DNA from: an uncultured Caldilineaceae bacterium
GTDB lineage: Bacteria; Chloroflexota; Anaerolineae; Caldilineales; Caldilineaceae
Assembly (NCBI GenBank): GCA_964370975.1
Contig: CAYJNV010000006.1
Coordinates: forward strand, 1 to 32,877
Length of the DNA stretch: 32,877 nucleotides
Direction of reading: 5' to 3'
The notes below the pieces were generated by a model. That model was not told the origin of the DNA. It made no database searches and saw only the letters and a list, made by a program, of their open reading frames with translations. A program made the position numbers and the translations under genes. Positions within the stretch are counted from its first letter, which is position 1. The number at the start of each line of letters is the position of its first letter. Positions 2-27,985 of this stretch are shown piece after piece.

Positions 2-1519
2 GTGCGCATGTATTCGTGGCTACTGGCCATGAGCCTGCTGAGCACGCTGGCGCTTTGGCAACTGCTGGAAGAACCGCGCGCGATTGTGCGTCGGCAGCGC
101 ATTGGCTGGGGTACAGCCTACGCTGTCTCGGTCGCGGCGTGCGTCTATCTGCACTACTATGGCGCGCTTGTCCCGATTGTCCAGGCCCTCTTTGTGGCCG
201 GGTGGGCCATTGCCACGCGCCGCTGGACGCCAACGCTGCTGTGGGCAGGATGGTCGGCGGGCGCACTGCTGCTTTTTGCGCCGTGGCTGCCGCGCGCGCT
301 GGGCATTTTCGGCTTTGGCGGCTGGCGCACAGACGGCACTGTGGCCGAGATGCCGTGGCGCTATCTGGCGGCCTACAGCGGCAGCGCAAACATGCCCACA
401 CCCTGGGACGACGTCATCCCCTGGATGACTCTGGTACTGGCGCTGCTGGGCGCAATCTGGTGGGTGCGCACGCGGCCTGCAGGCGGGCTGCTTATGACAG
501 CAATGGCCCTACTGCCTTTTGCGGGCGTGCTGCTGCTGGCTCTGCGCAATCCCGATTACCACGAACGGTACATTATCTTTGTGAGCGGGCCGTTTCTGGC
601 GCTGGCGGCCGCCGGCACCATCGCGCTGGAGCCGCGGTTATGGTCGAGCAATCGCGCCAAACGACGCCTCCACGGGCTGCCTGTGGCCACAGCAGCCGTC
701 GCCGCCATTCTGCTGAGCGCAAATTTCGCCGCGCTGGCCGAATCCTATGGCAACACCACCCTGCACAAACCCGGCTACCGTGCCGCTGCGGAACGCATTC
801 AGCGCGAGCAGCGGCCTGGTGACGTGATCCTGGTTGACGGCCCCAACCCTGAACAGGTCTTTGAGCACTACTACACGGGTGGCCTGCCCGTCGTGGATTT
901 GCGCCACCTCGAAGGCGCGTCTGCAGATGCAGTGGACGCGCAGCTGCGCGCTGCCACAAAGGGCGCGCAGCGCGTTTGGGAGTTGCTCTACTTCCATCCC
1001 CCAGGGCCCGTACAGGTGTGGCTGGCCACAAATGGCTGGGCCACCGAGCCGACCTACCACAACAACATCCGCGTAACTTTGTACGGCCTGGCAGACGGCG
1101 CGGGGCAAGTGAGCCGCGACGTCAAACACTATGGCCCGCCGCCAGCCTATGGGGACGCGCTCACACTCGAGCGCGCCGTCATCGCACCCGTTGCAGTCAC
1201 GCACGGTGACGTGGTGCGCGTAACCACCGACTGGCTCACGCACACGACCCCGCCTGACTGGAAGTTCAGCCTGCGCCTGCTCGCTGCGCAAGACAAGCAA
1301 GTGCAAGCGGTTGACTATACGCCCCAAAATTGGTTTGCGCCGACCTCGGCGTGGACTGTAGGCCGACCGGCGCGCGATCAACACGGTCTGCTAACGAACG
1401 AACTGGCGACGGGCGTGTACACCGTTACGCTGCGCTTGTATGACGAACACACGGGCGCGCCGGTGCAAACGGCCATCGGCGCGGATATTCCCTTGGGGAC
1501 GCTGGAGGTGCTGCCATGA
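2..1519 (+). CDS. GT-C-type polytopic membrane glycosyltransferase, 5'-truncated by the window edge
   Basis: The frame is open from nt 2, so the gene probably continues upstream. The N-part has several hydrophobic helices (WLLAMSLLSTLAL, LLLFAPWLP, LLPFAGVLLLAL). A soluble part follows, ending in a C-terminal module (GDALTLERAVIAP..VVRVTTDW..YTVTLRLYDEHTGAPV) that recurs in the next two ORFs. The TGA stop overlaps the next start (ATGA at 1516-1519). Confidence 0.7.
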   Translation: MRMYSWLLAMSLLSTLALWQLLEEPRAIVRRQRIGWGTAYAVSVAACVYLHYYGALVPIVQALFVAGWAIATRRWTPTLLWAGWSAGALLLFAPWLPRALGIFGFGGWRTDGTVAEMPWRYLAAYSGSANMPTPWDDVIPWMTLVLALLGAIWWVRTRPAGGLLMTAMALLPFAGVLLLALRNPDYHERYIIFVSGPFLALAAAGTIALEPRLWSSNRAKRRLHGLPVATAAVAAILLSANFAALAESYGNTTLHKPGYRAAAERIQREQRPGDVILVDGPNPEQVFEHYYTGGLPVVDLRHLEGASADAVDAQLRAATKGAQRVWELLYFHPPGPVQVWLATNGWATEPTYHNNIRVTLYGLADGAGQVSRDVKHYGPPPAYGDALTLERAVIAPVAVTHGDVVRVTTDWLTHTTPPDWKFSLRLLAAQDKQVQAVDYTPQNWFAPTSAWTVGRPARDQHGLLTNELATGVYTVTLRLYDEHTGAPVQTAIGADIPLGTLEVLP

Positions 1520-3609: not shown

Positions 3610-5891
3610 GCACGCGTGCCGGGCGCCTGCTGCCCGTGCTCATTGTGGCGGGATTCGTACTCGTCGCATTTTCCTTCAGTTTGCGCGTACCCCCCTTTGA
3701 GACGCCTGACGAGGTGAACCACTATGCCTTTGCGCGCAACGTCGCACAGGGCAAGGGGCTACCCATTCAGGCCGCAACGCCCACTGGTCCCTGGGAACAC
3801 GAAGGCAGCCAGCCCCCTCTTTACTACCTCATCACAGGCGCGCTGACGAGCGGGATCGACCAGTCGGACTTTACCGCACTGGCAACGCGCAACCCACGCG
3901 CCAACATCGGCAACCCGCTCTATCCCGGCAACAAGAATTTCATGCTCTACAGTGGGGCCAATCGCCCACTGCGCGGCAGCAATCTTGCGCTGCACGTGGG
4001 TCGCTGGTTCTCCATCGCGCTGGGCGCATGCACGCTCTGGCTTATCCTGATGACGGCGCGGCTGGCCTTTGGCGCAAACGACCCGCGCGCGCCCCTTGCC
4101 ATGGCGCTGGCCGCCGCCATACCCCAGTTCGCCTTCATTCATGGCTCCTTCAGCAATGATGCACTCATCACTTTGATGAGCGCCGCCACACTCTTTTGGC
4201 TCGCACGCCTGGCTGTCAAGGACGACGAAGAGACGATTGCGCGGTGGGAGTGGCTCCTGCTTGGCGTGCTGCTGGGTGGCGCGGCGCTGAGCAAGCTGCA
4301 GGGGCTTGGCCTGAGCCTGCTTGCGGGCATGATGATCCTTTCGCTTGTCTGGCGGCGGCGCGACATGCGCCTCGTTTTGCGGGCGCTGCCCTGGGTGGCG
4401 CTGCCCCCGTTGCTGATCGCCGGCTGGTGGTTCGTCCGCAACATTGCACTTTATGACGACGTGACAGGGACAACGCTCCTGCTGACGGTCAACGGGCTAC
4501 GCACCGCCGCCATGGACATGGCCGACTGGTGGCTCGAGTTCCGCGGGCTGCGCTACTCCTTTTGGGGACTGTTCGGCTGGTTCAATCTCCTGTTGCCGCA
4601 GTGGTTCTACAGCCTCATGGATGCCCTGACCATAGTGGCAATAGGCGGGGCCGTCGCGGGGCTCCTCCGGCGGCGGCAGAGCGGGCGGATTGCAGCGCGC
4701 GACGCAGCCACGCGCGTGCTCCTGCTGTTGCTTGTGTGGGCGCTGCTCGTCACAGGTCTGCTGTTTTCTTTCACATCGCAGGCCACAGCCAGCCAGGGAC
4801 GGCTCCTCTTTCCGGCCATCAGCGCCATTGCCATTCTGGGCGTGCTGGGTATGGAGACCTGGCTGCGGCCACTGCCGCGCTTGGTCGCGACGATCTTTTG
4901 GAGCGGCTTGCTCACCCTGCTTGTGGGCTGTTCCTTTTACGCGCTTGCGGTGATGCTGCCACGCGCCTATCAGAGCGTCGGGTCACTGGACGCGCTACCC
5001 AGCACCGCGCAGACGACAGATGTTCGTTACGCCGGCGCCACCCCCATTGACTTGCTGGGGATTGAAGCGCCGGCGCGCGCCGCCGCCGGGGTCGATGTGC
5101 CGGTGACGCTTTACCTCAGCGCGCCCATCACCCCCACACGCGATGAAGAACTGTTTGTGCAGTTACTTGACGAATCGGGCAACGCCATTGCCAACGTCAC
5201 CTCACACCCTGGCTGGGGGCGCAACCCCACCACCCTCTGGCGCGCCGGCGCCATCTACCCTGATGCGTATGCCCTGGCGCTGACGCGTGCGATTGACAAC
5301 CGCTCGCCTCTGGCTGCACGCCTCTACGTGGGCTTTGTGGACCCGGCAACGGCTGCGCAGGGCAATCGGCCGCTGCCCGCCAGCAACGCCGCCGGCGAGC
5401 GCATTGTCCCCTTTGTGGCCACGGTGGTTATCGAACCGATTGACCCGCCAACGCTTGAGAATACCGGATTGCGCGCACTTGGCGCGTCCTTTGGCGACGT
5501 AATACGCGTGGCAGGCGCGGCGCTCTCGAGCGAGCATGTGCAAGCGGGCAACGCGGTGACGGCCACGGTCCTCTACGACGCATTGGGCCAGCCCGCCACA
5601 GAGTACACGGCCTTTGTGCATCTTCTCAACGAGGCCGGTGAGCAGGTGGCCGGCTTTGACAAGGCCCCTGCCGACGGCCGTCTGCCCACAAGCCTGTGGC
5701 GTTCAGGCGACGCGATCGCGACGGACTTCCCCATTGCGTTGCCAACCGGTCTGCCTCACGGCGCATACAGCGTCATCACCGGCCTCTACGAGAGCAGCAG
5801 CGAGGGCGCGCGCCGCCTGCCAGTGAGCGACGCCGCAGGACACCCGTCAGGCGACGGCTGGGTGCAAATCGGGCGCATCACGGTCGAGTAA
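3606..5891 (+). CDS. DUF2142-like GT-C-type polytopic membrane protein (putative glycosyltransferase) with duplicated C-terminal module
   Basis: 761-aa ORF whose GTG start overlaps the upstream stop (GTGA at 3606-3609). After TM1 comes RVPPFETPDEVNHYAFARNVAQG, the PDE..H first-loop motif I associate with DUF2142. It has more than 10 hydrophobic helices. Two copies of the soluble module are present (..VPVTLYLSAP..PTTLWRAG.. and FGDVIRVAGAAL..VTATVLYDA..LPTSLWRSGD..YSVITGLYES..RLPV). Confidence 0.75.
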   Translation: MSTRAGRLLPVLIVAGFVLVAFSFSLRVPPFETPDEVNHYAFARNVAQGKGLPIQAATPTGPWEHEGSQPPLYYLITGALTSGIDQSDFTALATRNPRANIGNPLYPGNKNFMLYSGANRPLRGSNLALHVGRWFSIALGACTLWLILMTARLAFGANDPRAPLAMALAAAIPQFAFIHGSFSNDALITLMSAATLFWLARLAVKDDEETIARWEWLLLGVLLGGAALSKLQGLGLSLLAGMMILSLVWRRRDMRLVLRALPWVALPPLLIAGWWFVRNIALYDDVTGTTLLLTVNGLRTAAMDMADWWLEFRGLRYSFWGLFGWFNLLLPQWFYSLMDALTIVAIGGAVAGLLRRRQSGRIAARDAATRVLLLLLVWALLVTGLLFSFTSQATASQGRLLFPAISAIAILGVLGMETWLRPLPRLVATIFWSGLLTLLVGCSFYALAVMLPRAYQSVGSLDALPSTAQTTDVRYAGATPIDLLGIEAPARAAAGVDVPVTLYLSAPITPTRDEELFVQLLDESGNAIANVTSHPGWGRNPTTLWRAGAIYPDAYALALTRAIDNRSPLAARLYVGFVDPATAAQGNRPLPASNAAGERIVPFVATVVIEPIDPPTLENTGLRALGASFGDVIRVAGAALSSEHVQAGNAVTATVLYDALGQPATEYTAFVHLLNEAGEQVAGFDKAPADGRLPTSLWRSGDAIATDFPIALPTGLPHGAYSVITGLYESSSEGARRLPVSDAAGHPSGDGWVQIGRITVE

Positions 5892-5900
5892 GCCCGGCGC

Positions 5901-8456
5901 CTACTCTGTATCGTCGGATTCGGCAACGGGCTCCGGGTCGGGTTGCTTGCGGCTCCTGCGCGGCTTGCGGGCAGACTTGGGCTCCTCTTCCTCCACAAGA
6001 TCGTCCGCCTTCTTGCGCACTTCGGTCAGTTCCTGCAGCCGGTCGGTTACCTTGCGGTTGAAGGAATTCTTGGCATAGACCCCACCTTTGCCCGGCTCAC
6101 CGGCGGCCATGCCCGAGAGCAATTCAATGCCCTCATTGACAGAGGTCACCGCCCATACCGAAAAGCTGCCGGCGCGCACGGCGGCAACCACGTCCTCGCG
6201 CAGCATGAGATGCTGGACATTGGCGGCGGGTATCATGACGCCCTGATCGCCCGTCAGCCCACGCGCTGCACAGAGGTCGTAGAAACCCTCGATCTTCTCG
6301 TTGAGGCCGCCCACGGCCTGCACCTCGCCCAGTTGATTGACCGAGCCGGTGACGCCAATGTCCTGACGCAGGGGCACGCGCGCAATGGCCGAAAGCAGCA
6401 CGTAGAGTTCAGCAGCCGAGGCGCTGTCGCCCTCCACGCCGCCGTAGTTCTGCTCGAAAACCAGACTGGCGGCCAGCGAGAAGGGCTCCTCGGGCGCATA
6501 TTGGGCGCGCAAATAGCTCGTGAGGATCATCACCCCTTTGCTGTGAATGGGGCCGCCCATCTCCACCTCGCGCTCAATGTCGATAATCTCGCCCGAGCCG
6601 AGGCGCACGGTCGCAGTAATGCGCGAAGGGTGGCCGAACTCATGCTTGCCCATCTGCACAACCGAGAGACCATTAAGCTGACCCACGCACGAGCCAGTGG
6701 TGTTGATGAGCAGTGAGCCACGCAATACATCCTCGCGCAGCCGCTCCTCGGTGCGGCTCAGGCGGAACTGGCGTGAGTCGAGGGCTTCTTGCACGTGGCC
6801 GGCATCAACAATCTCGGCCCCCGCCGCGGCCGCCCAGTAGTCGGCCTCCTGCATCAGCCCTTTCAGTTCGCTGATGCGCGCCGACAGACGGAGAGCGTCT
6901 TCAGCCCAGCGCGCACTCTGCTCAATCAGTTGAGCGACAGCGTCACGCGTCAGTGGACGCAGCGCGTCGGCACGTGCAATGGTGGCAATCAACTGCGCGA
7001 AGAGCAGTTCCGTCTCGGGCGAGCGCTCGAGTTCATCGTCAAAGTCGGCGCTCACTTTGAAGAGTTCGCCAAAGTCGGGGTCATGCTCGGCCAGCAGATA
7101 GTAGATGGTCGGTTCACCCAGCAGGATGACCTTGACGTTGAGCGGCACCGGCTCGGGCTCGAGCGAAATCGTGGTCGATAGGCTCATCATTTCGAGCGGC
7201 GACTCGATGCGAATTTCGTGGAACTGGAGCGCGCGCTTGAGTCCCTCCCAACTGGCGGGCGACGTGAGCACCTTCTGCGCGTCCAGAATCAGGTAGCCGC
7301 CATTCGCGCGGTGCAGGCAGCCGGCTTTGATAAGCATAAAATCGGTGATGAGCGCGCCCATTTGCGCAATGTGCTCAACCCGCCCCATCAGGTTGAGATA
7401 GGTGGGGTTGCTTTCGTAGACCACGGGCGCGCCGCGCGCCTCCGAGGCATCGACGATCACATTAACCTGGTAGCGACGGGGCAGGTTGCGGCCCGAGAGA
7501 AAGTTCTGCAGGGGCGAGGCGGAGTTGTCGCCGTCGCTGTGCGCCTCCTCGCCGCCGCCAAGCAGATCCAGCACATGCTCGACAACGTCGGCCTGGAGGC
7601 TTTCGAGCCACGTGATAACATTCGGCTGTTCGTGGTAGCGCTCGAGCAGATCATGGCTCACGAGGTTGAGGACACGCGTGATGATCTCCTGGTGCAGTTC
7701 ACGCGCGCGTATGCGGAACTCGCGCTCCATGGCGGGCACCTTGAAGATGACCTTGCGCAACTCATCCTGCAGCGGCTGGACTCGTTGGCGGTACTGCTCC
7801 TTCTCCTCAGCGGTCAACTGGTCAAATTCTTCGTCGGTCATGACGACGTCACCCTTGAGCGCGCCGAAGGTGAAGCCGTCGGCGGAACGCACGAGTGCCA
7901 GCCCCTGGGCGCGCGCCTGCTCCTGCAGTTCGTAGAGTGTCGCCTCCTGGCGAGCGCTGAATTCGGCCCCGATGCGCTGGCGGCGCAACTGAATCTCCTC
8001 GCCTTCAAAGGCGGCCGAAAGGCCCGTGCGCAGTTCTTCGGTAAAGCGCTGCATGTCGGTGCGCAGTTGCTTGCCCATGCCCGCCGGCAGCGCAAGGGCG
8101 TGCGGCTTCGATGGCTCAGCAAAGTTGTTGACATAGCACCAGTCGCTGGGCGCGTCTTCACTCGCCGCCTGCTGCTCCACATGGCGGCGCACAAGCGTCA
8201 GTTTGCCGGTGCCTGCCGGGCCAAAAGCGAAGATATTGTAGCCCTGGTGACGCATGCGCACGCCCAGGTCTACCGCCTGGCGGGCGCGCGCCTGGCCGAT
8301 GAACTCGTGCAGATCGGGCAACTCGGAGGTGGTGGCAAAGGGCAGGCTCTGCGCGTTGCAGGGCGTGCGCAGCGAATCAGGCGAAAGCGGGGCAATGGGG
8401 GACACGCGCGGTCCTTTCGGGTCAATCGATTTATCCACATGGCCGCGCAAGTGCAC
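5901..8456 (-). CDS. LonC-like Lon-family serine protease (AAA_32-type ATPase-like domain plus Lon_C protease domain)
   Basis: 851-aa ORF. The N-terminal region reads FIGQARARQAVDLGVRMRHQGYNIFAFGPAGTGKLTLV. A long charged helical insertion follows, then GGYLILDA. The C-terminal Lon protease motifs are GVEGDSASAAEL (Ser codon 6423-6425) and GGLNEKIEGF (Lys codon 6294-6296). Alternative start: GTG at 8405, preceded by AGGA 6 nt upstream; the ATG at 8456 has no SD. Confidence 0.85.
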   Translation of the reverse strand: MHLRGHVDKSIDPKGPRVSPIAPLSPDSLRTPCNAQSLPFATTSELPDLHEFIGQARARQAVDLGVRMRHQGYNIFAFGPAGTGKLTLVRRHVEQQAASEDAPSDWCYVNNFAEPSKPHALALPAGMGKQLRTDMQRFTEELRTGLSAAFEGEEIQLRRQRIGAEFSARQEATLYELQEQARAQGLALVRSADGFTFGALKGDVVMTDEEFDQLTAEEKEQYRQRVQPLQDELRKVIFKVPAMEREFRIRARELHQEIITRVLNLVSHDLLERYHEQPNVITWLESLQADVVEHVLDLLGGGEEAHSDGDNSASPLQNFLSGRNLPRRYQVNVIVDASEARGAPVVYESNPTYLNLMGRVEHIAQMGALITDFMLIKAGCLHRANGGYLILDAQKVLTSPASWEGLKRALQFHEIRIESPLEMMSLSTTISLEPEPVPLNVKVILLGEPTIYYLLAEHDPDFGELFKVSADFDDELERSPETELLFAQLIATIARADALRPLTRDAVAQLIEQSARWAEDALRLSARISELKGLMQEADYWAAAAGAEIVDAGHVQEALDSRQFRLSRTEERLREDVLRGSLLINTTGSCVGQLNGLSVVQMGKHEFGHPSRITATVRLGSGEIIDIEREVEMGGPIHSKGVMILTSYLRAQYAPEEPFSLAASLVFEQNYGGVEGDSASAAELYVLLSAIARVPLRQDIGVTGSVNQLGEVQAVGGLNEKIEGFYDLCAARGLTGDQGVMIPAANVQHLMLREDVVAAVRAGSFSVWAVTSVNEGIELLSGMAAGEPGKGGVYAKNSFNRKVTDRLQELTEVRKKADDLVEEEEPKSARKPRRSRKQPDPEPVAESDDTE

Positions 8457-13075: not shown

Positions 13076-14056
13076 ATGGCAAAACCATTCATTTCCATCA
13101 TCGGGCTGGGCGCAACAGGCTGCGCCGTGGGGCTGGCGCTGCGCAAGGAGCCCGGCGAGTTTGAAGTGGTCGGCCACGACAAGAGCCAGGCCGCCGAGTC
13201 TGAGGCGCGCAAGCTCAACGCCGTGCAGCGCACAGAGTGGAACCTGCACCGCGCCGTGGAGGGCTGCAGCATGGTCATCCTGGCGCTGCCGCTGCCCGCC
13301 ATTGAGGAGACGCTCGCGCTGATTGCCGAAGACCTCGCACCCCAGGCGCTGGTGCTCGTGCTCAATGGCCTCCTGCAGCCGGTTGTGGAGAGCGCACAGC
13401 GCGCCCTGCCCAACCACGCCCGCTTCGTGGCCGCCCATTTGGTCACCGGCATCCATGCCCCTGAGTCACCCTCGGCCGAAACCTTTGTCAAGGTGGCCTG
13501 CTGTATTGCCGCTGCGCCCCACACCGACCCCACGGCGCTGGAATTGGCCGGCGACTTCGCCGAACGTATGGGCGCGACCGCCCACTTTATGGACCCTGTG
13601 GAGCACGACGGCGTCGCTGCTGTGGTCGAGCAGATGCCGCAGCTTGCCGGTGCGGCGCTGCTCGCCATCAGCACGAAATCGCCCGGCTGGCGCGAGGCGC
13701 GACAAGTGGCAGGCGCGCGCTATGCCGCTGCAACGGAGATCGGTGGCAACGCTGCGCAAATCGGCCGCGCCTTGCTAGGCAATCGCGAAAACGTGCGCAG
13801 GCAACTTGTGCTGATGCAGAACGAGCTTGCGCGCTGGCAGGCACTGCTCGATGTCGACGCGCCGGAGGATGGGGGCGCACACCCGCTTCAGGACGCGCTG
13901 CAGGAACTTCTCGACGCGCGCTCGGTCTGGGCGCAGCAGGCCGCAGCGGGTGATTGGGAGAAGGAACCCCAGCCCATGAGCAGCAGAGAGTCGAACGGGA
14001 TGCTGCGCCAGCTCTTGCTTGGCAACATCGGCAAGCGCAAGCCGCCGACAAACTGA
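13076..14056 (+). CDS. prephenate/arogenate dehydrogenase-like NAD(P)-binding protein (divergent)
   Basis: The N-terminal Rossmann motif is ISIIGLGATGCAVGLAL. The layout resembles TyrA (MVILALPLPAIEETL, FVAAHLVTG, MDPVEHDGVAAVV). The usual GGHPMAG and SHLPH strings are divergent, so the function is uncertain. Confidence 0.5.
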   Translation: MAKPFISIIGLGATGCAVGLALRKEPGEFEVVGHDKSQAAESEARKLNAVQRTEWNLHRAVEGCSMVILALPLPAIEETLALIAEDLAPQALVLVLNGLLQPVVESAQRALPNHARFVAAHLVTGIHAPESPSAETFVKVACCIAAAPHTDPTALELAGDFAERMGATAHFMDPVEHDGVAAVVEQMPQLAGAALLAISTKSPGWREARQVAGARYAAATEIGGNAAQIGRALLGNRENVRRQLVLMQNELARWQALLDVDAPEDGGAHPLQDALQELLDARSVWAQQAAAGDWEKEPQPMSSRESNGMLRQLLLGNIGKRKPPTN

Positions 14057-19157: not shown

Positions 19158-19187
19158 TATAGGGCCGCTACGCTATACTTGCAGATT

Positions 19188-20219
19188 ATGCAGAGCAGAC
19201 AGCGTAGCCGCAATGAAGAATACGAAGCGAACGGTGACGCCGAAAAAGCAGACCCTAAGGCGTCGGCGTTGGCCGGCGCAACTGCGTATCAGCCCGCGTA
19301 TCCGCTCCGCGTGGTGGTGCTGAACTGGAATCTTGCTGCCGACACACTGGCATGTGTGCAATCGCTGCTCATCGATGGTTTCCAGCCCGCTGATATCCTG
19401 GTCATGGACAATGGATCAACAGCAGGCCGAGGAACACTTGCAGCAGGACTGCCGCCAGGCGTGGGACAGCTCTATTTGCCGCAGAACGTGGGCTTTGCCG
19501 CAGGTAGCAATGTCGGCATTGCTGCCGCACTTGACACGGGCGCGGCGTGGTTGCTGCTACTGAACAACGATACTCTTGTGGAGCGGGGCGCACGCCGCGC
19601 GCTGCTCGACGCGGCAGCGACAGACACATTTGCGCTTCTCAGCCCGCTCATCCTTTACAGTGATCCGCCTCCGCGTGTCTGGTCGCTGGGCGATCGGCGC
19701 ATTATGGGTACGCTGCTTACGCGCAGCTTATGGCGCAACCAGCCGCCGCCCACGCAACTGCCGACGCTGCTGGAAGTAGACTTCCTCACCGCATGTGCGC
19801 TCATGGTGCGCGCCGACGTCTTCGCGCGTGTAGGGCTGCTGGATGAAGGCTACTTCATGTACGCTGAAGATGCCGACTTCTGCTTGCGCGCGTCCAGGGC
19901 TGGTTTTCACCTCGGCTGCGCAACGGAAGCGCGCATCGCGCACAAAGTGTCGCGCAGCACGGGGAGTACGCACCCGGCCGCGCGTCGCTGGCGCATTTTC
20001 TACCAGGCGCGCTTCTACCGCCTGCATGCGGGGCCAATGCAGCGGCTTCTACTGCTCATGCCCTACACATTGGCGCGTTCGCTCCTAATGGCCGTACGCG
20101 ACCTCCTCGCAGGCCGTTCGCAGATGGCCGCCGCCACGTTGCAGGGATGGCTTAGCGGGTGGGTGCAGACCCATAGTCCCGGCCACAATGCAACTGGCAG
20201 GTCGAATAGCGACCAATGA
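19188..20219 (+). CDS. GT2 glycosyltransferase (WbbL/rhamnosyltransferase-like subgroup)
   Basis: Motifs: VVVLNWNLAADTLACVQSL, VMDNGSTAG, NVGFAAGSNVGI, LLLNNDT, YAEDADFCLRA. The maximal ORF begins at TTG 19179; I chose the first ATG at 19188. Confidence 0.8.
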   Translation: MQSRQRSRNEEYEANGDAEKADPKASALAGATAYQPAYPLRVVVLNWNLAADTLACVQSLLIDGFQPADILVMDNGSTAGRGTLAAGLPPGVGQLYLPQNVGFAAGSNVGIAAALDTGAAWLLLLNNDTLVERGARRALLDAAATDTFALLSPLILYSDPPPRVWSLGDRRIMGTLLTRSLWRNQPPPTQLPTLLEVDFLTACALMVRADVFARVGLLDEGYFMYAEDADFCLRASRAGFHLGCATEARIAHKVSRSTGSTHPAARRWRIFYQARFYRLHAGPMQRLLLLMPYTLARSLLMAVRDLLAGRSQMAAATLQGWLSGWVQTHSPGHNATGRSNSDQ

Positions 20220-21886
20220 ACGATGCTCTCGGAATTCCCGGCACATTGGAGTCGTCGGTTGTTTTATCGCAGCGCGCGCAACGCGTCGTGCGTAATTCGT
20301 TCGCGATCGTTTGCGCTGCGGCAATCGCACTTCTATTCATTCCCCAGGCCTTGGTTGTTGCGGCAGCAGTGCGACTTGCGCCGGATCATCTGCTTGAAGA
20401 GAAGACAGTCGCGCTGCTTGGGGCCCTGCAATGGGTGATGCCCATTGTGGGGGTGCTTGGCATCATCTGGATCTTGCTCGCACCACGTGCACGTAGTTCG
20501 ATGCGCAACTTAGCGATCGTGACTGGCTCCAGTCGGTGGAGCCTTCCAGTGATTTTGGTGCTTGCCACAGTTGTGCGCGTTGCCTGGCTGTATTGGTTCC
20601 CTACTCGACCGTACGCCGATTCGGTTGGCTATATTGCCGCCGCTACGCAACTCGTGAATGGCCATGGCTATGTTTGGGATGCGGAGAGTATGCAACCCCT
20701 GGTCGGATGGCCTGTGGGCTACCCGGCAATTCTGGCCGCCTTGTTCCTGATTACGGGGGTGACTGCTGAGACTGCGCTTGCGCTCAACCTGGTGGTTTCG
20801 GTGCTGACGGTGGCGCAGACGGCTTGGCTTGGATCTCTCCTGTTTGGGAGACGCGTGGGCCTGATGTCCGCGCTTCTGCTGGCGCTGTTTCCGGGCTTTG
20901 TAGTCTATACGAGTCTTGTCAGCACGGAACTTGTGTTCCTGTGGTTGACAAGTCTGTGCTACCTGTTGGCGGCCCGCCCACCGCAGCGAACCACCGCCTT
21001 TGCACCCACGGTCAATGCTGGCATTGCAGCAGGGATTATGGCGGGAGCGGGCGCGCTCGTCCGCTCGACGGGGCTGCTTTTGTTGCCCTTTTGGGTCTTT
21101 GTGAGATGGAGCAGTCAACGCAATGTAAAGCAAGCGGCATTGTGGGCAGTCGCGCTCTTTGCCACTGCTGCGCTCATCGTTTTGCCCTGGACAGCGCGCA
21201 ATTACCTGACGTTCGGCAAGATCATTCCTGTTTCCACCAATGGTGGGATGAACTTCTGGATAGGCAACAATCCGAATTCTCACGGGGCGTATATGTTTCC
21301 GCACGACCCCGCGTTGAATCCACTCTACCCGCTTGCCGAACAACGTGATGAGATTGGCATGGAGTCTGAAGGCTATCGGCTCGGAAGTGCATGGATCCGT
21401 GCGACCTTGCAGACTGACCCCAAGCGCATATTTGTGCTGTACGGCGCCAAAATCGTCTACTTCGTCTCCGGGTTCGATTTTGGCCTGCAATGGAACACGC
21501 TGTCGGCGATGGCGGAAAATCAAAGCGGAACCGGCCTGCGGGCACACGTGCTTGTCAACGGGGCCTATTTGGCGATGCTGGCGGGCGTATTCTTCGGCGT
21601 CTTGGCACTAATGCTCGCGCGCGGACATGGCACCCTGTTGCAGTGGGGGCCGTTGCTCTTCTACCTTTACTGGCTTGCAGTACATATGCCCTTCTTTGGA
21701 CAAGATCGCTTCATGCTCCCGGCGCTGCCCGGGCTGATCATCTTTTGCGCACTGGGCGCGTTGACACTGTTTGACGCCGTGATTGCGACTCCATCTCACG
21801 CGTCGCGAGGTGAAGTCGCAGCATCCTTATCGGAACACCGCATTGACGCGGGTAAAGATGGAATCAATGCCACATGGAAACTGTAG
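20216..21886 (+). CDS. GT-C family membrane glycosyltransferase (PMT_2/ArnT-like)
   Basis: 556-aa polytopic protein. The first-loop motif is WFPTRPYADSVGYIAAATQLVNGHGY (Asp plus Tyr pattern of ArnT/PMT_2-like enzymes). The start overlaps the upstream stop (ATGA at 20216-20219). Confidence 0.8.
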   Translation: MNDALGIPGTLESSVVLSQRAQRVVRNSFAIVCAAAIALLFIPQALVVAAAVRLAPDHLLEEKTVALLGALQWVMPIVGVLGIIWILLAPRARSSMRNLAIVTGSSRWSLPVILVLATVVRVAWLYWFPTRPYADSVGYIAAATQLVNGHGYVWDAESMQPLVGWPVGYPAILAALFLITGVTAETALALNLVVSVLTVAQTAWLGSLLFGRRVGLMSALLLALFPGFVVYTSLVSTELVFLWLTSLCYLLAARPPQRTTAFAPTVNAGIAAGIMAGAGALVRSTGLLLLPFWVFVRWSSQRNVKQAALWAVALFATAALIVLPWTARNYLTFGKIIPVSTNGGMNFWIGNNPNSHGAYMFPHDPALNPLYPLAEQRDEIGMESEGYRLGSAWIRATLQTDPKRIFVLYGAKIVYFVSGFDFGLQWNTLSAMAENQSGTGLRAHVLVNGAYLAMLAGVFFGVLALMLARGHGTLLQWGPLLFYLYWLAVHMPFFGQDRFMLPALPGLIIFCALGALTLFDAVIATPSHASRGEVAASLSEHRIDAGKDGINATWKL

Positions 21887-22854
21887 TGTGCAACCTCTGC
21901 GGCGCCGCCGACGCGACCGAATTTGCCGTCGTCCCCGATCTGCTCCTTGATCGTCCCGACGTCCACGCCCGTCTCGTACGCTGCAATGCCTGCGGGCTTG
22001 TCTACCAGAACCCGCGCCCCACGCCAGACGAAATCGGGGTGCACTATCCTTCAACCTACGAGTCCTACGCCAACCATCGCGTCCGCGCCAAAGGCCAGTT
22101 ACTGCGACGCGCCTACGATTATGGAATGCAGAAGCGTTGCCGCTTTGTCACGCGTGCCTTACCGCAAGGAGGACGTCTGCTTGACCTGGGATGCGCTGCC
22201 GGCGCCTTCCTCGTTGCCATGCGCGAGCAAGCCAACTGGGAGGTGGAGGGCGTTGAGTTAAGTAAGGAGACGGCGCAAAGCGCACGTGAGCACAATGGGC
22301 TCAAGGTCTTCGCAGGCACGCTTGAACAGGCCAACTTCCCGGACAACCACTTTGACGCTGTGACGCTGTGGGATGTACTGGAACACCTGCATGACCCTGT
22401 CGGGACGCTCGCGGAGATCAATCGCGTTCTGCGCCCAGGTGGAGTTGCCGTTATCCGCGTGCCAAATTTCGATAGTTGGGATGCATCGCTCTTTGGCTTG
22501 TACTGGGCCGGACTGGATGCGCCGCGCCACTTGTACATCTACACGCGCGCGACGCTGGCAAACTCTCTGCGCGCCGGTGGTCTAGAGTTACTCGGTCAAT
22601 CAACGGCGATAGGTTCCTACCCCATCTTTGCCCTCAACGTGCGCTTCTGGTTGAACGCCCGCGGTGCAACCCCAGGCGTCAAAGGCGCAATATCGAAGGC
22701 CCTGTACAACCCGATCAGCCGGCTGTTGAGCGTGCCGGTATTCTTCGTCCCATCTGTGGCGGGGGCAGGGCCACTGCTTGTCGCGACGGCACGCAAACCG
22801 GTGGGTCGGCCCGCACCGAGCCCACAGAAGAACAAGGACATGGCACATCCATGA
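21874..22854 (+). CDS. class I SAM-dependent methyltransferase with N-terminal Cys4 zinc ribbon
   Basis: CNLCGAAD...VRCNACGLVY forms the CxxC..CxxC ribbon. LLDLGCAAGAFL is motif I, followed by DAVTLWDVLEHL and LRPGGVAVIRVPN. Overlaps the upstream gene by 13 nt. Confidence 0.8.
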   Translation: METVVCNLCGAADATEFAVVPDLLLDRPDVHARLVRCNACGLVYQNPRPTPDEIGVHYPSTYESYANHRVRAKGQLLRRAYDYGMQKRCRFVTRALPQGGRLLDLGCAAGAFLVAMREQANWEVEGVELSKETAQSAREHNGLKVFAGTLEQANFPDNHFDAVTLWDVLEHLHDPVGTLAEINRVLRPGGVAVIRVPNFDSWDASLFGLYWAGLDAPRHLYIYTRATLANSLRAGGLELLGQSTAIGSYPIFALNVRFWLNARGATPGVKGAISKALYNPISRLLSVPVFFVPSVAGAGPLLVATARKPVGRPAPSPQKNKDMAHP

Positions 22855-23654
22855 TTGACATTCAGCACGCAACCATACGTCAGGGCCAGTCCATTCAAGA
22901 CGCGTACGATGAGCTCTTCCAGGAACGCTCGCTCATCATGCGCGACTCGTTCTACTTGTGGATTCTGGAACTCGCGCGCCCGGCCCCTGGCGATTTGCTG
23001 GTTGACGTTGCCACCGGCAACGGGCGGCTGGTGGAACTGGCCACCGCACAGGGGATCCGTGCGGTGGGCGCCGATCTCTCCTACCAAGGTATTGCCACTG
23101 TGGCCGCGTCAGCACCCGAAGCGGCTTCCTGGCTCGTCTCTGACGGCCAATGCATGGCGCTGCCCGATGGTTCGGTGGATCGCGTCATCAGCCTCGGGAG
23201 TCTTGAACACTACGACGATCCGCTTCAGGGCGCGTCCGAGCTTGCGCGTATTCTCAAGCCGAACGGTCGCGCGGTCGTATTGCTGCCGAATGCCTACGGC
23301 ATTTTTGGCAACGTCAAGTACGTTTGGCAGCATGGCGAGGTATTTGACGATGGGCAACCCCATCAGCGCTATGCGACGCGCGGCACATGGGAGCGAATGC
23401 TGCAGCGGGCCGGGCTCATGCCCGAACGACTGGTCGCATGGACTGAAGTCAACCGCCCGCGCACGCGACGTGACTTTGACGTCATGCTGCGCAGTCCACA
23501 AAAGATCGTGCGCGCCGCACTTGCTGCTGCCTTTCCGGTCAATCTCGCCAACCAACTGGTCTTCCTGTGCCGGCGGTCGTCAAACGCCGAGAAGGCGTCG
23601 GCAGCGGCCCACTACACCACGCTTCCCACTCACTTTGAGCGTACCACGTCATGA
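22851..23654 (+). CDS. class I SAM-dependent methyltransferase (Methyltransf_11-like)
   Basis: I trimmed the maximal ORF (from 22476) to ATG 22851, which overlaps the upstream stop (ATGA). LLVDVATGNGRL is motif I, followed by DRVISLGSLEH and LKPNGRAVVLLPN. Confidence 0.8.
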   Translation: MIDIQHATIRQGQSIQDAYDELFQERSLIMRDSFYLWILELARPAPGDLLVDVATGNGRLVELATAQGIRAVGADLSYQGIATVAASAPEAASWLVSDGQCMALPDGSVDRVISLGSLEHYDDPLQGASELARILKPNGRAVVLLPNAYGIFGNVKYVWQHGEVFDDGQPHQRYATRGTWERMLQRAGLMPERLVAWTEVNRPRTRRDFDVMLRSPQKIVRAALAAAFPVNLANQLVFLCRRSSNAEKASAAAHYTTLPTHFERTTS

Positions 23655-24640
23655 GTCGGCCCGATGCGCCCTCCCCGGCTCCCGCGCCACCGGGTCCGCC
23701 CGGTAGGCTCGGCGACGAAAGCGAAACTCCAACGCCACGGCGCGGCAGCCGCTACCTTGCAGCCGGCATTACAGCCCTTCTCATGGCGCTGATTCTCGGC
23801 TGGCTGCTCTTCCGTGAGCGCGACGCCCTTGCCACAATTAACGTGCAGCACGCCTGGCCGCGACTGGTTGCAGGCCAGGTGCTGATGCTCATCGGCCTGA
23901 TCGGTGCAGCGTGGGTATGGGGGAGCATCATGCGTGCCGTCGGTTCGCGGCTTGCCATGGTGGACCATTTTCACATTTATGCGAGCACCTATCTCTCGCG
24001 CTTTCTGCCCGGCACAATCTGGTATGTAGTGGGACGCAGCGCCTTCTACCGCATAGAGGGTGAGACAGCGCGTTCGGTGACCGTGGGCAGCGCGATTGAG
24101 TTGCTGTTGTCCACAGTGGCGGGAGCGCTGTTGGCGTTTGCGCTTGGGATTCTGGTGGCAACTCAGACGCCTGCGGCCACGCTGCCTGTGCTGGCTTTAG
24201 CAGTGGCCGCAGGCATACTGGCATTCAACCCTCGGGTGCTGGCGCTGCTTGTCAGGCGTCTGCGCTTACCAGCCGTGCCGCCGCTGCCCATGGGCTCCCT
24301 CGCGAGGTGGCTGCTTGTTGACATTTTGGCGTGGCTCATCGGGGCCGTCATCTTTTGGCTTATCGCGAATGAGGTGGGCAGCGTTCCCCTTGCGGCAATT
24401 GGCTACACCACCTTTGCATGGACGTTGATGGGTAGCCTTGTTATCTTCGTATTCTTCTTGCCCAGTAACTTCGGCTTGACCGAAGTGGGGCTGACCCTGC
24501 TGCTTAGCACCATCATGCCCTCTTCCCTCGCGGTTGTCGTTGCGGTCCTCACGCGCATCCTGCAAACCCTATTCGCCGTTGTTGCTTGCGGGCTGATTGT
24601 GGCTGTGACAACACATCGGCGGCGCGCGGCGCGCCCGTAG
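23651..24640 (+). CDS. UPF0104 / lysyl-phosphatidylglycerol-synthase-TM-region-like polytopic membrane protein (putative lipid-linked-sugar flippase)
   Basis: A Pro-rich cytoplasmic N-terminus precedes about 8 hydrophobic helices. IYASTYLSRFLPGTIWYVVGRSAFY resembles the conserved (F)xNxxLPGxxGxxxR loop of the family. The start overlaps the upstream stop (ATGA at 23651-23654). Confidence 0.65.
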   Translation: MSRPDAPSPAPAPPGPPGRLGDESETPTPRRGSRYLAAGITALLMALILGWLLFRERDALATINVQHAWPRLVAGQVLMLIGLIGAAWVWGSIMRAVGSRLAMVDHFHIYASTYLSRFLPGTIWYVVGRSAFYRIEGETARSVTVGSAIELLLSTVAGALLAFALGILVATQTPAATLPVLALAVAAGILAFNPRVLALLVRRLRLPAVPPLPMGSLARWLLVDILAWLIGAVIFWLIANEVGSVPLAAIGYTTFAWTLMGSLVIFVFFLPSNFGLTEVGLTLLLSTIMPSSLAVVVAVLTRILQTLFAVVACGLIVAVTTHRRRAARP

Positions 24641-24964
24641 AACCTGGTGATACTGGGGCAAACGCCATCACCCAAACGGAGTATCATTCTCCAGAGAAAA
24701 GCCGCGCAGCGCGTTTGCGACGGCATTTGCGCCTGGATGCAGAAGAGTGAGCAGAATACCCCCATCGTTGTATTGAAGTGCTGCGCGAAATGGCGCATGA
24801 TGGTCGCAGCGAATGGCAGGTCGATGTTCGACGACCTCGGCACTTCCTGCACGCCGCGCCGGAATTAAGGCAATTCGACCAGTTTCTGTCGCGGCGCTTT
24901 CAAGTCACGTCAGATCAAAGTAGACAGTCACCGCTTTCAATTTGCTTTCCAGGGGAGGCACACA

Positions 24965-26293
24965 ATGTCAAAGGGATTACGCGTTCTGATTGTATTAGCG
25001 ATGCTGGCAGGCATCTTCGTCGTAGGTGGTGCGCAGGTTGCGTTGGCGCAGAACACCCAGTTCGCCGCCTATACATCGGGTATCCAGGTGGCAAACCTTG
25101 ACACAGTTCAGGCCGCAGTCGTGCTCATCGGCTACAATGCCGATGGAACGCAGAGCGGTTCGCCACTGAATGATACAATTCCGATCAACAGTTCCAAGAC
25201 GTACTTCCCGATCAGCAACGTAGCGAACGGCTTCAGTGGCTCGTTTGTGATTTCGTCCGACAAGAAGGTTGCGGCAATCAGCAACATTCTCTCGTCCGAC
25301 TTCAAAGCGGGTGCTTCGTACGTGGGCCGCTCGGGCGGCGCTACCAAGGTGCTGTTGCCGTTGCTGAACAAGAACAACTCGGGTTTCACCACGTGGTACA
25401 GCGTACAAAACGCCGGTGCGGGTGATGCCAGTGTGTCGGTCGCCTACAGTGACGGCACAAACGTCGGTCCATTCGTTGTCAAGGCTGGCGCTGCCAGGGT
25501 CTTCTACCAGGCAGCCGAGACGCACAGCGTTCCGGTCTTTGCAGGCACTGTCACGAGCAACCAGCCGGTTGTGGCGGCGGTAATACAGGAGAACAACCAG
25601 ATTATGTTCGCCTACACCGGGTTCACCGGTGGCACGACAAATCCAGTGTTCCCTCTGATCAATTCCAACAACTCAGGCTATGTCACGGGTCTGCAGATCC
25701 AAAATGGTGGTGATCAGGCAACAGAAGTGACTGTACAGTACACACCTGGCATTGCGGGCACAGCATGCACCGAGACACAGACCATTGCCAAGGGCGGGTC
25801 CAACACCTTTGCGCTGCGTGCATTCTTGCAGACAGTGGCCGGAGAGAACTGCGCCAATGGTGCGCGTTTCGTCGGCTCGGCACGCGTCTCGACAAACAGC
25901 ACCAACCAGCCGCTTGTGGCCGTGGGCAACCAGTTGGGCGTCGGCAACGGCGAAGCGTATGGTGCGTTTGACGCCGCTGAAGCAGGCCCCGTCGTCGTGA
26001 TGCCCTTGATCATGGACCGCAATGGCGCTTTCTTCACGGGCTTTAGCGTTCAGAATGTGGGCGTCGCGACTGCCGTCGAGTGCGTCTTCAGCAACAACGC
26101 TTACAAGGTTAACGCCAACCTGCAGCCCGGCCAGGCCGTATCGGACATTCAGTTCAACAAGCTCGGCGCCGGCTACGTCGGTGCGGCTACATGCAGCTCC
26201 AATCCGCCGAGCACACTCGTTGCGATTGTCAACGAGCTGAGCGTGACGCCGGGTGTGGACAACTTCCTCGTCTACGAAGGAATCAAGAAGTAG
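24965..26293 (+). CDS. secreted protein built from four ~100-aa tandem repeats (unknown family; candidate surface/sheath protein)
   Basis: The signal peptide is MSKGLRVLIVLAMLAGIFVVGGAQVALA|QN, and a strong SD GGGGAGG lies 6-7 nt upstream. Four internal repeats share PL(I/L)xxxNxG(F/Y)xTxxx(V/I)QNxG..V.V.Y, then (F/Y)xG(S/T)..V(S/T)SN..P(L/V)VAxxN, then Y.G. A hairpin terminator follows the gene. Confidence 0.8.
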   Translation: MSKGLRVLIVLAMLAGIFVVGGAQVALAQNTQFAAYTSGIQVANLDTVQAAVVLIGYNADGTQSGSPLNDTIPINSSKTYFPISNVANGFSGSFVISSDKKVAAISNILSSDFKAGASYVGRSGGATKVLLPLLNKNNSGFTTWYSVQNAGAGDASVSVAYSDGTNVGPFVVKAGAARVFYQAAETHSVPVFAGTVTSNQPVVAAVIQENNQIMFAYTGFTGGTTNPVFPLINSNNSGYVTGLQIQNGGDQATEVTVQYTPGIAGTACTETQTIAKGGSNTFALRAFLQTVAGENCANGARFVGSARVSTNSTNQPLVAVGNQLGVGNGEAYGAFDAAEAGPVVVMPLIMDRNGAFFTGFSVQNVGVATAVECVFSNNAYKVNANLQPGQAVSDIQFNKLGAGYVGAATCSSNPPSTLVAIVNELSVTPGVDNFLVYEGIKK

Positions 26294-26345: not shown

Positions 26346-26376
26346 GGAACGGGCGAGGATGCTCCTCGCCCGTTCC
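26346..26376 (+). terminator. hairpin terminator candidate after the repeat-protein gene
   Basis: GGAACGGGCGAGGA-tgc-TCCTCGCCCGTTCC is a perfect 14-bp GC-rich stem with a 3-nt loop, 52 nt after the stop. Only a short CUUG follows, so there is no real U-tract. Confidence 0.55.
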
Positions 26377-26553: not shown

Positions 26554-27183
26554 ATGCTGAAGAGACACGCTACTTCGTCTATTGTGATACTTATGTTCTT
26601 GACGCTTGCACTGACAGCTTGCGGGAAGGACAAGGCGCCGACCGCTTCGTCTGCAGCGGACCAACCGTCCGCCACTTCGATCCCGGCGCCCGTGGCGGGG
26701 GGGGCTGCGGAGTCACCGTTGCTTTCGGCGGGCGACTCGCCCGTTGCTACACCGGTGTCCGAGTCACCCATCGTCACACCTGAGCGTGAGGTTTCGGGCA
26801 TGACCGGCGAGACCTCTGGCGAGACGGGTGCGATAACGGGGAAGATTCTCATCTCCCGCGACGGCGCCGACGTGCCTGTCGCAGGCATGATCATCGGTCT
26901 GGCCGAAGTCATTCGCGACGAAAACGGCAACCCGCAAGCCACTGGATATGCCCCGGACACGGCCAAGAAGGGCACGACTCATGACGACGGCGGCTTTGCA
27001 GTCAACCTGGTGCCACCAGGTATGTATTCACTGATCCTCGATGCCGTAATTACTTCGTACCAACTTGAGAATCCCGTCACTGGGGAAACAATCCTCGTTG
27101 AGGTTGAGTCCGGGGAGGTGGTGGACGTGGGCGTGCTGCGCTACAGTACGCTGCCCGTGCCCGGCTTTAGCGATTCAAACTAG
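26554..27183 (+). CDS. lipoprotein with S/T/P/A-rich linker and C-terminal beta-sandwich (carboxypeptidase-regulatory-like) domain
   Basis: The signal peptide carries the lipobox LTLALTA|C. The low-complexity linker reads [46 protein letters not shown]. Then [38 protein letters not shown] resembles a CarboxypepD_reg-like fold. GAGG SD 5 nt upstream. Confidence 0.75.
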
Positions 27184-27271: not shown

Positions 27272-27985
27272 ATGACCACCCAACCCCGCATCACCATCCT
27301 GGTCGTCGACGACGAACCGCGCATGGTGCGCTTCGTCAAAATGAACCTCGACCTCGAGGGCTATTTCACGCTCGAGGCCAACAATGGCATGGTGGCGCTC
27401 GAGAAGGTGCGCGACTTCAACCCCGACCTGGTGCTGCTTGACGTGGAAATGCCCGGTATGGATGGCTTCGAGACGCTCAAGCGGCTGCGCCAGATCAGCG
27501 ACACCTCGGTCATCATGCTCACCGTGCGCTCGGATGAAGACGACAAGATCAAGGGGCTGGACCTGGGCGCGGACGACTACATCACCAAGCCCTTCAGCCC
27601 GCGCGAGCTTTCAAGTCGAGTGCGCGCCGTGCTGCGTCGCGCCGAGAACAGCGGCCGTCTCGAGAAGCAGACAATCACAATTGACGATCGCCTGCAGGTG
27701 GACCTGCAGCGGCGTGACGTGATCGTGGATGGCGAGCGCATCAACCTGCGCCCGACCGAGTATCGCCTGCTCTACCAACTCATTCAGAACGCGGGCTGGG
27801 TCATCCCCCACGAGACGCTGCTCACGAAAGTGTGGGGGCCAGAGTACCTCAACGACAATCACCTGCTGCGCCTCTACGTCACCTACTTGCGCAAGAAGAT
27901 TGAGCCGCACCCGGAATCTCCGCAGTACATCTTCACCGAGCGGGGGCTTGGCTACCGCTTTGTGGACTACAAGCGCAGCAACTAG
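27272..27985 (+). CDS. OmpR/PhoB-family response regulator (receiver plus winged-helix DNA-binding domain)
   Basis: [24 protein letters not shown] (phospho-acceptor Asp), LTVRSD and [10 protein letters not shown] form the receiver. [18 protein letters not shown] is the winged helix. I trimmed the maximal ORF (from 27065) to ATG 27272. Confidence 0.9.

Follow-up and report, generated by a model that had tools for sequence, protein, structure and literature searches.

We analysed a stretch of 32,877 nucleotides from an uncultured Caldilineaceae bacterium (contig CAYJNV010000006.1, forward strand; the window, meaning the whole stretch), with emphasis on the gene extending from 24965 to 26293 on the plus strand. 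The open reading frame, a family alignment and a structural model identify this gene as the coding sequence of a 442-residue secreted protein with four ASRAH-like domains. It lies directly downstream of a glycan island (about 14.2–24.6 kb), from which it is separated by a 324-nt spacer (24641–24964). On its 3′ side are genes for a 209-residue lipoprotein and then an OmpR-type response regulator, followed by rpsB. An earlier annotation of this DNA from its letters alone (the original prediction) had described a monocistronic gene for a secreted protein built of four repeats, with this spacer and a strong Shine-Dalgarno sequence in front of it. Both upstream features could be read directly; the Shine-Dalgarno sequence, GGGGAGG, occupies 24952–24958 (plus strand), 6 nt before the ATG, and a GGAG-type motif lies 5′ of the start codon in most orthologs.

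The first 28 residues (24965–25048, plus strand) constitute a predicted Sec signal peptide with cleavage after VALA, between MSKGLRVLIVLAMLAGIFVVGGAQVALA and QNT. In the AlphaFold model residues 3–20 form a hydrophobic helix and residues 21–28 are disordered. A28 and Q29 were invariant in an alignment of 58 homologs, and a comparable Sec signal was present at the start of every ortholog in 80 genomes. The mature chain of about 41 kDa ends in a conserved LVYEG sequence without an anchor, and neither the library search nor the model of the window protein revealed a membrane anchor or a known wall-anchor domain. Both the VALA cleavage site and the anchorless, secreted nature of the product that had been proposed are therefore borne out.

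The mature protein consists of four repeats, all encoded on the plus strand: domain 1 (D1; residues 29–127, 25049–25345), domain 2 (D2; residues 128–226, 25346–25642), domain 3 (D3; residues 227–342, 25643–25990) and domain 4 (D4; residues 343–442, 25991–26290). D2, D3 and D4 matched one another in pairwise BLASTP comparisons with E values of 5e-9 to 4e-7, far beyond chance, and profile–profile comparison of the corresponding slices of the family alignment with hhalign gave probabilities of 98–99% and E values of 1e-14 to 3e-17. D1, which was delimited from the model, the repeat alignment and hhalign, is a divergent copy; in BLASTP it gave an E value of about 0.015, and hhalign probabilities were 91% with D3, 60% with D2 and 39% with D4. 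The first strand reads h-h-h-P-L-h (h, hydrophobic) in D2–D4, whereas D1 has QF.AY and is devoid of the opening hhPLh motif. D3 contains an insertion and a Cys268–Cys296 pair, and D4 contains a Cys373–Cys410 pair; all four cysteines were invariant in 58 of 58 sequences. A model of the whole protein, built from the 58-sequence alignment, had a pLDDT of 91 and a pTM of 0.87 and contained four all-beta domains that coincide with the repeats, joined by linkers of about five residues. From the pTM and the short linkers we infer that the four domains may be packed as one rigid body. The boundaries given in the original prediction for its four repeats of about 100 residues, the sequence strings it quoted and its single cysteine pair in each of repeats 3 and 4 all agree with these results. 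Two of its generalisations apply to three repeats out of four: the shared strand ending in Tyr is replaced by one ending in CVF in D4, and the closing Y.G motif is AYGA in D3.

D2 was modelled alone using an alignment of 40 repeats, yielding an eight-stranded structure with a pLDDT of 93.6. When this predicted model, rather than a solved structure, was compared with the Protein Data Bank (PDB) using Foldseek, the top match was Thermotoga maritima TM1070 (1nc7), with a TM-score of 0.70–0.75, a root-mean-square deviation of 3.1–3.3 Å and a probability of 1.0. The next matches were chains of the transducer of sensory rhodopsin from Anabaena (ASRT; 2ii7, 2ii8, 2ii9 and 2iia) at 21–28% identity. 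All of the top 16 matches were to 1nc7 or to these ASRT entries, with further ASRT chains lower in the ranking. Ranks 17 and 20 were a flagellar hook cap (TM-score 0.35–0.40), and every unrelated structure scored below 0.45. ASRT was also recovered with a probability of 1.0 when the whole chain was used as the query.

TM1070 and ASRT are the founding members of the ASRAH superfamily, which is defined by an eight-stranded sandwich, a near-invariant Asn that ends strand 2 and stabilises the tight turn between strands 2 and 3, and a Trp that is conserved in strand 1; its extracellular members occur exclusively as dyads or tetrads (de Souza, Iyer & Aravind 2009, PMC2739507). The window protein has the Asn. 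Position 22 of the repeat alignment was Asn in all 40 repeat sequences, which represent all four repeat positions, and in the model it closes the strand formed by residues 15–22; in D2 it corresponds to Asn149. This column is one of only two that are invariant across the four positions, and it lies in a (V/I)QN motif in D2–D4 and an AN motif in D1. Four tandem copies in a protein of about 450 residues, as found in nearly all of the 150 representatives listed, fit the extracellular ASRAH tetrad. On the basis of the predicted structure and this one hallmark residue, we place the repeat in the ASRAH superfamily, as a divergent branch that had not been listed before. The repeat had been called an unrecognised module, which is true of sequence libraries, but by structure it is recognised as an ASRT/TM1070-type beta-sandwich. 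The original prediction had also stated that mapping of the repeat to a well-characterised domain of known function would count against it; what emerged, a known and structurally characterised fold whose function is debated, counts against it in part, but the protein is not explained away by it.

Sequence searches linked some of the homologs to a named family. DUF5719 (PF18986), which we take to be the actinobacterial ASRAH-dyad family, has a gathering threshold of 26.2 bits that was exceeded by two close homologs over D2 and D3 (P0012, 28.2 bits; P0078, 27.0 bits); two more fell below it (P0253, 19.7 bits; P0097, 15.6 bits), and the window protein had no match to this family. When the repeat profile was used in a word-indexed search for relatives of the ASRT type or fused to amidases, all that came back were fragments of this same family. 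Three other resemblances were rejected. A_amylase_inhib (tendamistat) matched 39 of the 58 homologs below its gathering threshold (best E value, 1.4e-5), a resemblance of a short hairpin without structural support. Alpha-2-macroglobulin, complement and fibronectin type III (fn3) arrays, recovered by Foldseek with the whole chain, had TM-scores of about 0.1 and reflect generic multi-sandwich architecture. Weak matches to small beta-sandwiches of viral structures reached TM-scores of at most 0.56 and carried no names.

The family is large. A word-indexed search returned 674 homologs, and an exhaustive profile search returned 3264 cluster representatives with E values of at most 1e-3, 481 of them at 1e-30 or below. 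Almost all are about 435–475 residues long and so represent the same four-domain protein, and the names attached to them are all 'hypothetical protein'. Named sources are nearly all Caldilineaceae or other Chloroflexota, along with one metagenome-assembled genome (MAG) labelled Competibacteraceae. When one genome per species was scanned, the gene was found in at least 143 species of the Genome Taxonomy Database. The counts given below for synteny, promoters and hairpins refer to about 80 loci, namely the best 80 of these at least 143 species, with denominators that vary by test. These 80 species are all of the Anaerolineae type (Caldilineales, Anaerolineales, Thermoflexales, Ardenticatenales, Promineifilaceae and Roseilinea). 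In a bin labelled Nitrospiria the family protein is identical over its first 40 residues to the one in an Anaerolineae bin of the same study and has the same upstream motif (L086/L087); the contig concerned is probably mis-binned. Identity to the window protein ranges from 82% down to 41% across the class. The gene is near-universal and mostly single-copy; a second, more divergent paralog (48% identity) occurs in Caldilinea sp. SRP329715_co2_365 (L021 and L083, one MAG) and has neither the syntenic glycan genes nor the lipoprotein gene nor the palindrome upstream (score 0.6) that are described below. Rare fusions join the module to NHL, Big_9, cadherin-like, PD40, fn3 or seven CarboxypepD_reg domains, all of which are of extracellular, surface type. 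Many homologs lie on Logan or JGI contigs of 1.3–2 kb that hold little else, which may reflect transcripts or high coverage. In the literature and libraries searched, we found no earlier description of this family of secreted tetrads that stand alone, of its conserved gene module or of its promoter motif; literature searches on ASRAH follow-ups and DUF5719 yielded nothing beyond the 2009 paper.

The gene order around the family is conserved in about 80 species whose orthologs are 41–71% identical. The island in the window contains, in order, genes for a family 2 glycosyltransferase (GT2), a GT4/GT1 enzyme, a Methyltransf_24 protein, a GT1 enzyme, a second GT2, a PMT_2 protein of the GT-C type, two class I S-adenosylmethionine (SAM) methyltransferases and a flippase-like membrane protein (LPG_synthase_TM/TIGR00374). 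The flippase-like gene (23651–24640, plus strand) provides the tightest upstream link, adjoining the target gene in 61 of 73 loci. One of the methyltransferases (21874–22854 and about 22851–23654; together 21874–23654, plus strand) was represented within 5 kb in 54 of 59 loci, and a GT2 resembling elongating enzymes of the rhamnosyl- or galactofuranosyl-transferase type (19179–20219, plus strand) was represented within 7 kb in 44 of 59. The linkage to glycan genes on which the original prediction had placed weight holds across about 80 species. The linkage to GT-C genes, which it had also proposed to examine, fared differently, as tblastn (E value of at most 1e-5) found no counterpart of the island PMT_2 gene near any of the 80 orthologs. 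The window itself has two GT-C-type genes, at 20216–21886 (PMT_2) and 3606–5888 (PMT family); the former appears to be lineage-specific, and in another locus (L005) a PMT_2 gene is found at a different place in the island.

Downstream, the lipoprotein gene (26554–27183, plus strand) encodes a lipobox (LTAC), a low-complexity linker rich in Pro, Ala, Ser and Thr, and a C-terminal beta-sandwich resembling CarboxypepD_reg, which was the top Pfam match, below threshold, in five of five orthologs. A homolog was found by tblastn at most 1.8 kb downstream of the target gene in 51 of 72 loci, and an open reading frame with a lipobox follows the gene in about 60 of 80. One 1489-residue homolog (P0202) has the four-domain module fused to the seven CarboxypepD_reg domains mentioned above, which hints at a partnership with the lipoprotein. 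In Caldilineales the family is syntenic with the rpsB-tsf-pyrH-frr-uppS-cdsA housekeeping block.

Several observations concern the flanks of this module. The OmpR-type regulator (27272–27985) shares 81–97% amino acid identity within Caldilineales, compared with 60–71% for the secreted protein, and no histidine kinase gene adjoins it; the TTG start at 27065 listed by the ORF finder is an over-extension; gene calls in relatives give 237 residues. A gene resembling prephenate dehydrogenase (13076–14056) borders the 5′ side of the island both here and in two related loci (L097/L098), indicating that the whole island, and not its 3′ end alone, is syntenic in some relatives. Further upstream are a LonB/LonC-like AAA protease gene (5901–8456, minus strand) and an open reading frame of 697 codons without a Pfam match (1516–3606, plus strand). 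No Rfam family was found anywhere in the window.

Direct alignment of the upstream regions was uninformative, and ungapped matching combined with a position weight matrix (PWM) was used to examine them. An imperfect palindrome, AATACCCCCATCGTTGTATTGAA, is located at 24755–24777 (plus strand) and conforms to a family consensus, AATAACCCnAAnGnnnTATTG (TAACCC-N5-GGGTTA), about 210 nt 5′ of the ATG. At a threshold of 14 bits it was the sole match in the 32.9-kb window. At 18 bits, both strands of 2.58 Mb of related loci contained 65 matches within 400 nt upstream of an ortholog and 10 elsewhere, 8 of which were the same palindromes on the opposite strand. The terminal TTG of the palindrome is also the start of a –35-like hexamer, TTGAAG (24773–24778), which is followed after a 17-nt spacer by a –10-like CATGAT (24796–24801), so that the promoter-like site spans 24773–24801 (plus strand). 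The –10 element of the window is weak and the site was missed by a consensus promoter scan. Across the orthologous instances, however, TAnnnT was found 16–18 nt after TTGnnn in 42 of 60, compared with 3.8 expected from shuffles. The implied 5′ untranslated region (UTR) is about 155 nt in the window and about 60–250 nt across the family; the transcript in the window is predicted to begin near 24808 and to end near 26376. As read from these motifs, the 24965 gene has its own putative σ70-type promoter with the palindrome abutting the –35 element, and the palindrome looks like a candidate operator for a dimeric regulator.

On the 3′ side, a perfect 14-bp hairpin with a TGC loop and no U-tract begins 53 nt after the stop codon (26346–26376, plus strand). 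This region folds with a z-score of –4.8 and was missed by a consensus terminator scan. In 75 of 81 loci, compared with 7.8 expected, a stem of 9 bp or more without interruption (usually 12–21 bp) was present no more than 130 nt beyond the stop codon. The 12–21-bp stems are mostly without a U-tract, and the hairpin sequence itself is not conserved (L017–L096). Of the hairpin terminator originally proposed, the hairpin itself is confirmed; the structure may be a terminator or a stabiliser of the mRNA 3′ end. The conserved promoter and hairpin together bracket the gene, and the proposal that it is monocistronic is consequently far better supported than it could be from a single sequence.

[quoted passage not shown] By cryo-tomography, the filaments of this organism share an outer layer bearing a continuous, lattice-like proteinaceous layer that is consistent with an S-layer and to which no protein was assigned (Joest et al. 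2026, PMC13319060). In the CsCl surface-appendage fraction of the same study, the protein ranked second by both intensity and copy number among 1272 was A0A540VDF2 (PMC13319060, Supplementary Table 2; PRIDE PXD066799), the 49-kDa product of FKZ61_15795. Its neighbours include a 28-kDa class I SAM methyltransferase (FKZ61_15785), a pyruvyl transferase (FKZ61_15765) and a GT2 (FKZ61_15745). A methyltransferase, one undetected gene and a 49-kDa protein match the order of the second methyltransferase, the flippase-like protein and the target in the window. Cluster look-ups, a homolog search seeded with a protein from a Litorilinea MAG and matching by molecular weight brought up no entry labelled as FKZ61_15795. 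Judged by gene order and size alone, it is a probable but unverified ortholog. Densities on the archaellin of L. aerophila were interpreted as O-glycans, indicating that the class probably glycosylates surface proteins.

Taking these data together, we favour the interpretation that the 24965 gene specifies a conserved, probably abundant envelope protein of filamentous Anaerolineae and Caldilineae that either covers the outer layer of glycan or is retained on it, and we give this interpretation a probability of about one half. Location in the envelope is suggested by the conserved signal peptides, the four invariant cysteines and the fusions to surface-type domains. Sugar binding, the surface-coat role and abundance are what we infer from the fold, the gene linkage and the proteomic lead. 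Since the ASRAH fold is predicted to bind sugars, the link to the island may be that of a lectin to its ligand rather than, or besides, that of a substrate to its enzyme. In the scheme we propose, transcription would start from the dedicated, palindrome-bearing promoter and would end at, or yield a message stabilised by, the 3′ hairpin. Export by the Sec pathway and removal of the signal peptide would release the 41-kDa chain of four ASRT/TM1070-like sandwiches, two of them stapled by disulfides. The four domains would pack together as an intramolecular counterpart of the ASRAH dyads and tetrads, mimicking the homotetramers of ASRT and TM1070. The chain could be retained by either or both of two routes: lectin-like binding of a methylated glycan in the ASRAH clefts, the glycan having been assembled and flipped by the products of the adjacent GT2, methyltransferase and flippase-like genes, or association with the co-conserved downstream lipoprotein. 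In this way the protein would cover the outer layer, made of glycan, in which the filament is ensheathed.

Several results weigh against this interpretation. S-layer proteins usually diverge fast, and the conservation of the family is unusually high for an exposed protein of that kind. The codon usage, which had been described as visibly different, is only mildly shifted (GGT, AAG, TTC, TAC and CAG are preferred), and the effective number of codons (Nc), 44.6, falls inside the range of 36–52 for neighbouring genes. Pfam and NCBIfam searches detected no SLH, CWB2 or other wall-binding module in the window protein. Sequence models place the window protein in no family. Searches of Pfam, NCBIfam and PDB sequences with the whole protein gave nothing significant; the ASRT hidden Markov model (PF07100) did not match the window protein and reached an E value of 0.068 in 1 of 58 homologs; and the repeat profile searched against PDB sequences gave only a non-significant match to CBM2 (E value, 0.62). 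The repeat alignment has no Trp column corresponding to the Trp at the start of ASRAH strand 1. FKZ61_15795 is named 'CARDB domain-containing' in UniProt. Sugar binding, through a cleft lined by strand 2, is a prediction for the superfamily and even for ASRT (PMC2739507).

A more specific extension is that the family forms the subunit of the lattice-like layer on the shared outer layer. This would be a new S-layer architecture in which each subunit, one chain whose ASRT-type lectin domains form a pseudo-tetramer, is held by the methylated glycan and tethered by the lipoprotein. We put this forward tentatively, as a possibility with the odds against it; if it were true, the S-layer would be unusually conserved throughout the class, and a palindromic operator of its own would control it.

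Among the alternatives, the one that survives best, although we consider it unlikely, is that the protein is primarily a glycosylation substrate, as the original prediction had supposed, i.e. an S-layer or sheath glycoprotein carrying O- or N-linked glycans made by the island, with the sandwiches serving as lattice blocks rather than lectins. The conserved glycan-gene linkage would be expected of such a protein, a layout with its own promoter and its own hairpin is typical of S-layer genes, and the Litorilinea archaellin offers a precedent for O-glycosylation. The composition is rich in Asn, Ser, Thr, Gly and Val with a median of seven N-x-S/T sequons per homolog, but none of these is fully conserved among 58 sequences, the best being N75 in 43; the sequons pointed out originally are therefore present without being fixed. 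The two GT-C/PMT-type genes of the window (20216–21886 and 3606–5888) speak for this alternative, yet the island GT-C gene had no counterpart by tblastn near any of the 80 orthologs, and the GT2 that is conserved resembles cytoplasmic glycan-elongating enzymes and not a protein glycosyltransferase. The relatives by fold, moreover, are predicted sugar binders. Modification by the island and the coat role that we prefer could both be true.

An improbable alternative is that the tetrad is a peptidoglycan- or wall-binding accessory protein, which would have murein or a wall polymer as its ligand and contribute to organisation of the wall or septum within the filament instead of an outer coat. The closest described architecture, the amidase-linked tetrad of Chloroflexi, has been proposed to bind peptidoglycan elements, the high sequence conservation fits a conserved ligand, and the gene that follows FKZ61_15795 in L. 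aerophila encodes a SpoIID/LytB-domain protein. However, the family carries no fused amidase or other enzyme domain, none is conserved nearby, and the conserved neighbours make a methylated glycan, not murein.

We are still more doubtful that the protein is a glycan assembly or export factor, produced in modest amounts and not as a coat, to which, as scaffold or chaperone, the lipid-linked glycan would pass in the wall zone once flipped. Its position beside the flippase-like gene in 61 of 73 loci and its partner lipoprotein would suit such a function, the mild codon bias would be compatible with it, and the palindromic site, which resembles an operator, suggests that expression is regulated and not simply maximal. 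On the other hand, the separate promoter and strong hairpin set the gene apart from the glycan operon. The Litorilinea proteomic lead, if valid, implies very high abundance, and the many very short contigs that carry the gene alone could reflect high transcript or coverage levels. Finally, a secreted lectin directed at the environment, for adhesion to external polysaccharides or cells or for capture of nutrient sugars, with the organism's own envelope glycan being irrelevant, would agree with the predicted sugar-binding fold and with the fusions of some homologs to adhesin-type NHL, cadherin-like, Big_9 and fn3 domains, but it is very improbable for a near-universal, mostly single-copy gene that is syntenic with envelope glycan genes, the lipoprotein and the Caldilineales housekeeping block and that has no genes for transporters or glycoside hydrolases linked to it.

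Sludge, sediments and hot springs everywhere harbour filamentous Anaerolineae and Caldilineae, whose envelope molecules have hardly been characterised. The family provides a concrete, class-wide candidate for the Litorilinea-type protein layer seen by cryo-tomography in 2025–2026, together with partner genes and a promoter motif. The ASRT/ASRAH fold, whose function is debated, gains a large extracellular family in a clear glycan context with which the sugar-binding prediction can be addressed, and about 3000 'hypothetical proteins' leave the pile of unknowns.

Among known systems, CARDB (PF07705) has similar beta-sandwich repeats of about 100 residues and an N-x-G turn motif; a weak match to it (E value, 0.0013) was found in one fused homolog (P0164), with no match in the window protein or the 58 homologs and none described as CARDB among the top 50 structural matches. 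S-layer proteins, such as SLH-anchored S-layer proteins and the Ig-array proteins HPI and SlpA of Deinococcus, are likewise secreted, acidic, Cys-poor, all-beta and multi-domain. Their genes are similarly monocistronic, with their own promoter, a long 5′ UTR, a strong 3′ hairpin and glycan genes nearby. The window protein differs in having no SLH or CWB2 anchor and in being far more conserved, and both lattice formation and abundance are conjectural in its case.

ASRT and TM1070 (PF07100; 2II7 and 1NC7) share with each repeat the eight-stranded sandwich of about 100 residues and the Asn that ends strand 2. They are cytoplasmic, single-domain proteins that assemble as homotetramers, whereas the window protein is secreted and carries its four copies covalently in tandem in one chain. 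Their strand-2 signature is SHEshChhN and is accompanied by the strand-1 Trp; the corresponding sequence here is T(G/W)xx(V/I)QN, without the Trp.

The extracellular ASRAH proteins are closer in organisation. The amidase-linked tetrads found in Roseiflexus (repeats at residues 373–471 of gi 148657162), Chloroflexus and Herpetosiphon (family 2, PMC2739507), which we compared by their published description, are secreted proteins of the same phylum with four tandem ASRAH domains and were proposed to bind envelope glycans. They are found in Chloroflexia and are always fused to an N-acetylmuramoyl-L-alanine amidase, whereas the family described here belongs to Anaerolineae and Caldilineae, has no enzyme domain and has genes for glycan synthesis and for a lipoprotein as its linked neighbours. 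The actinobacterial ASRAH-dyad lipoprotein (family 3, PMC2739507) is also an extracellular multi-ASRAH protein; it is linked to a glycosyltransferase and WhiB and was proposed to form a surface structure via the glycan made by that enzyme. It carries a lipobox itself and is extended at both the N- and the C-terminus, in contrast to the tetrad with a cleaved Sec signal described here, for which the lipobox is encoded by the separate downstream gene. The combination of an ASRAH tetrad with linkage to glycan genes thus parallels both the Chloroflexi amidase tetrads and the actinobacterial dyad, which speaks for the envelope coat that we prefer.

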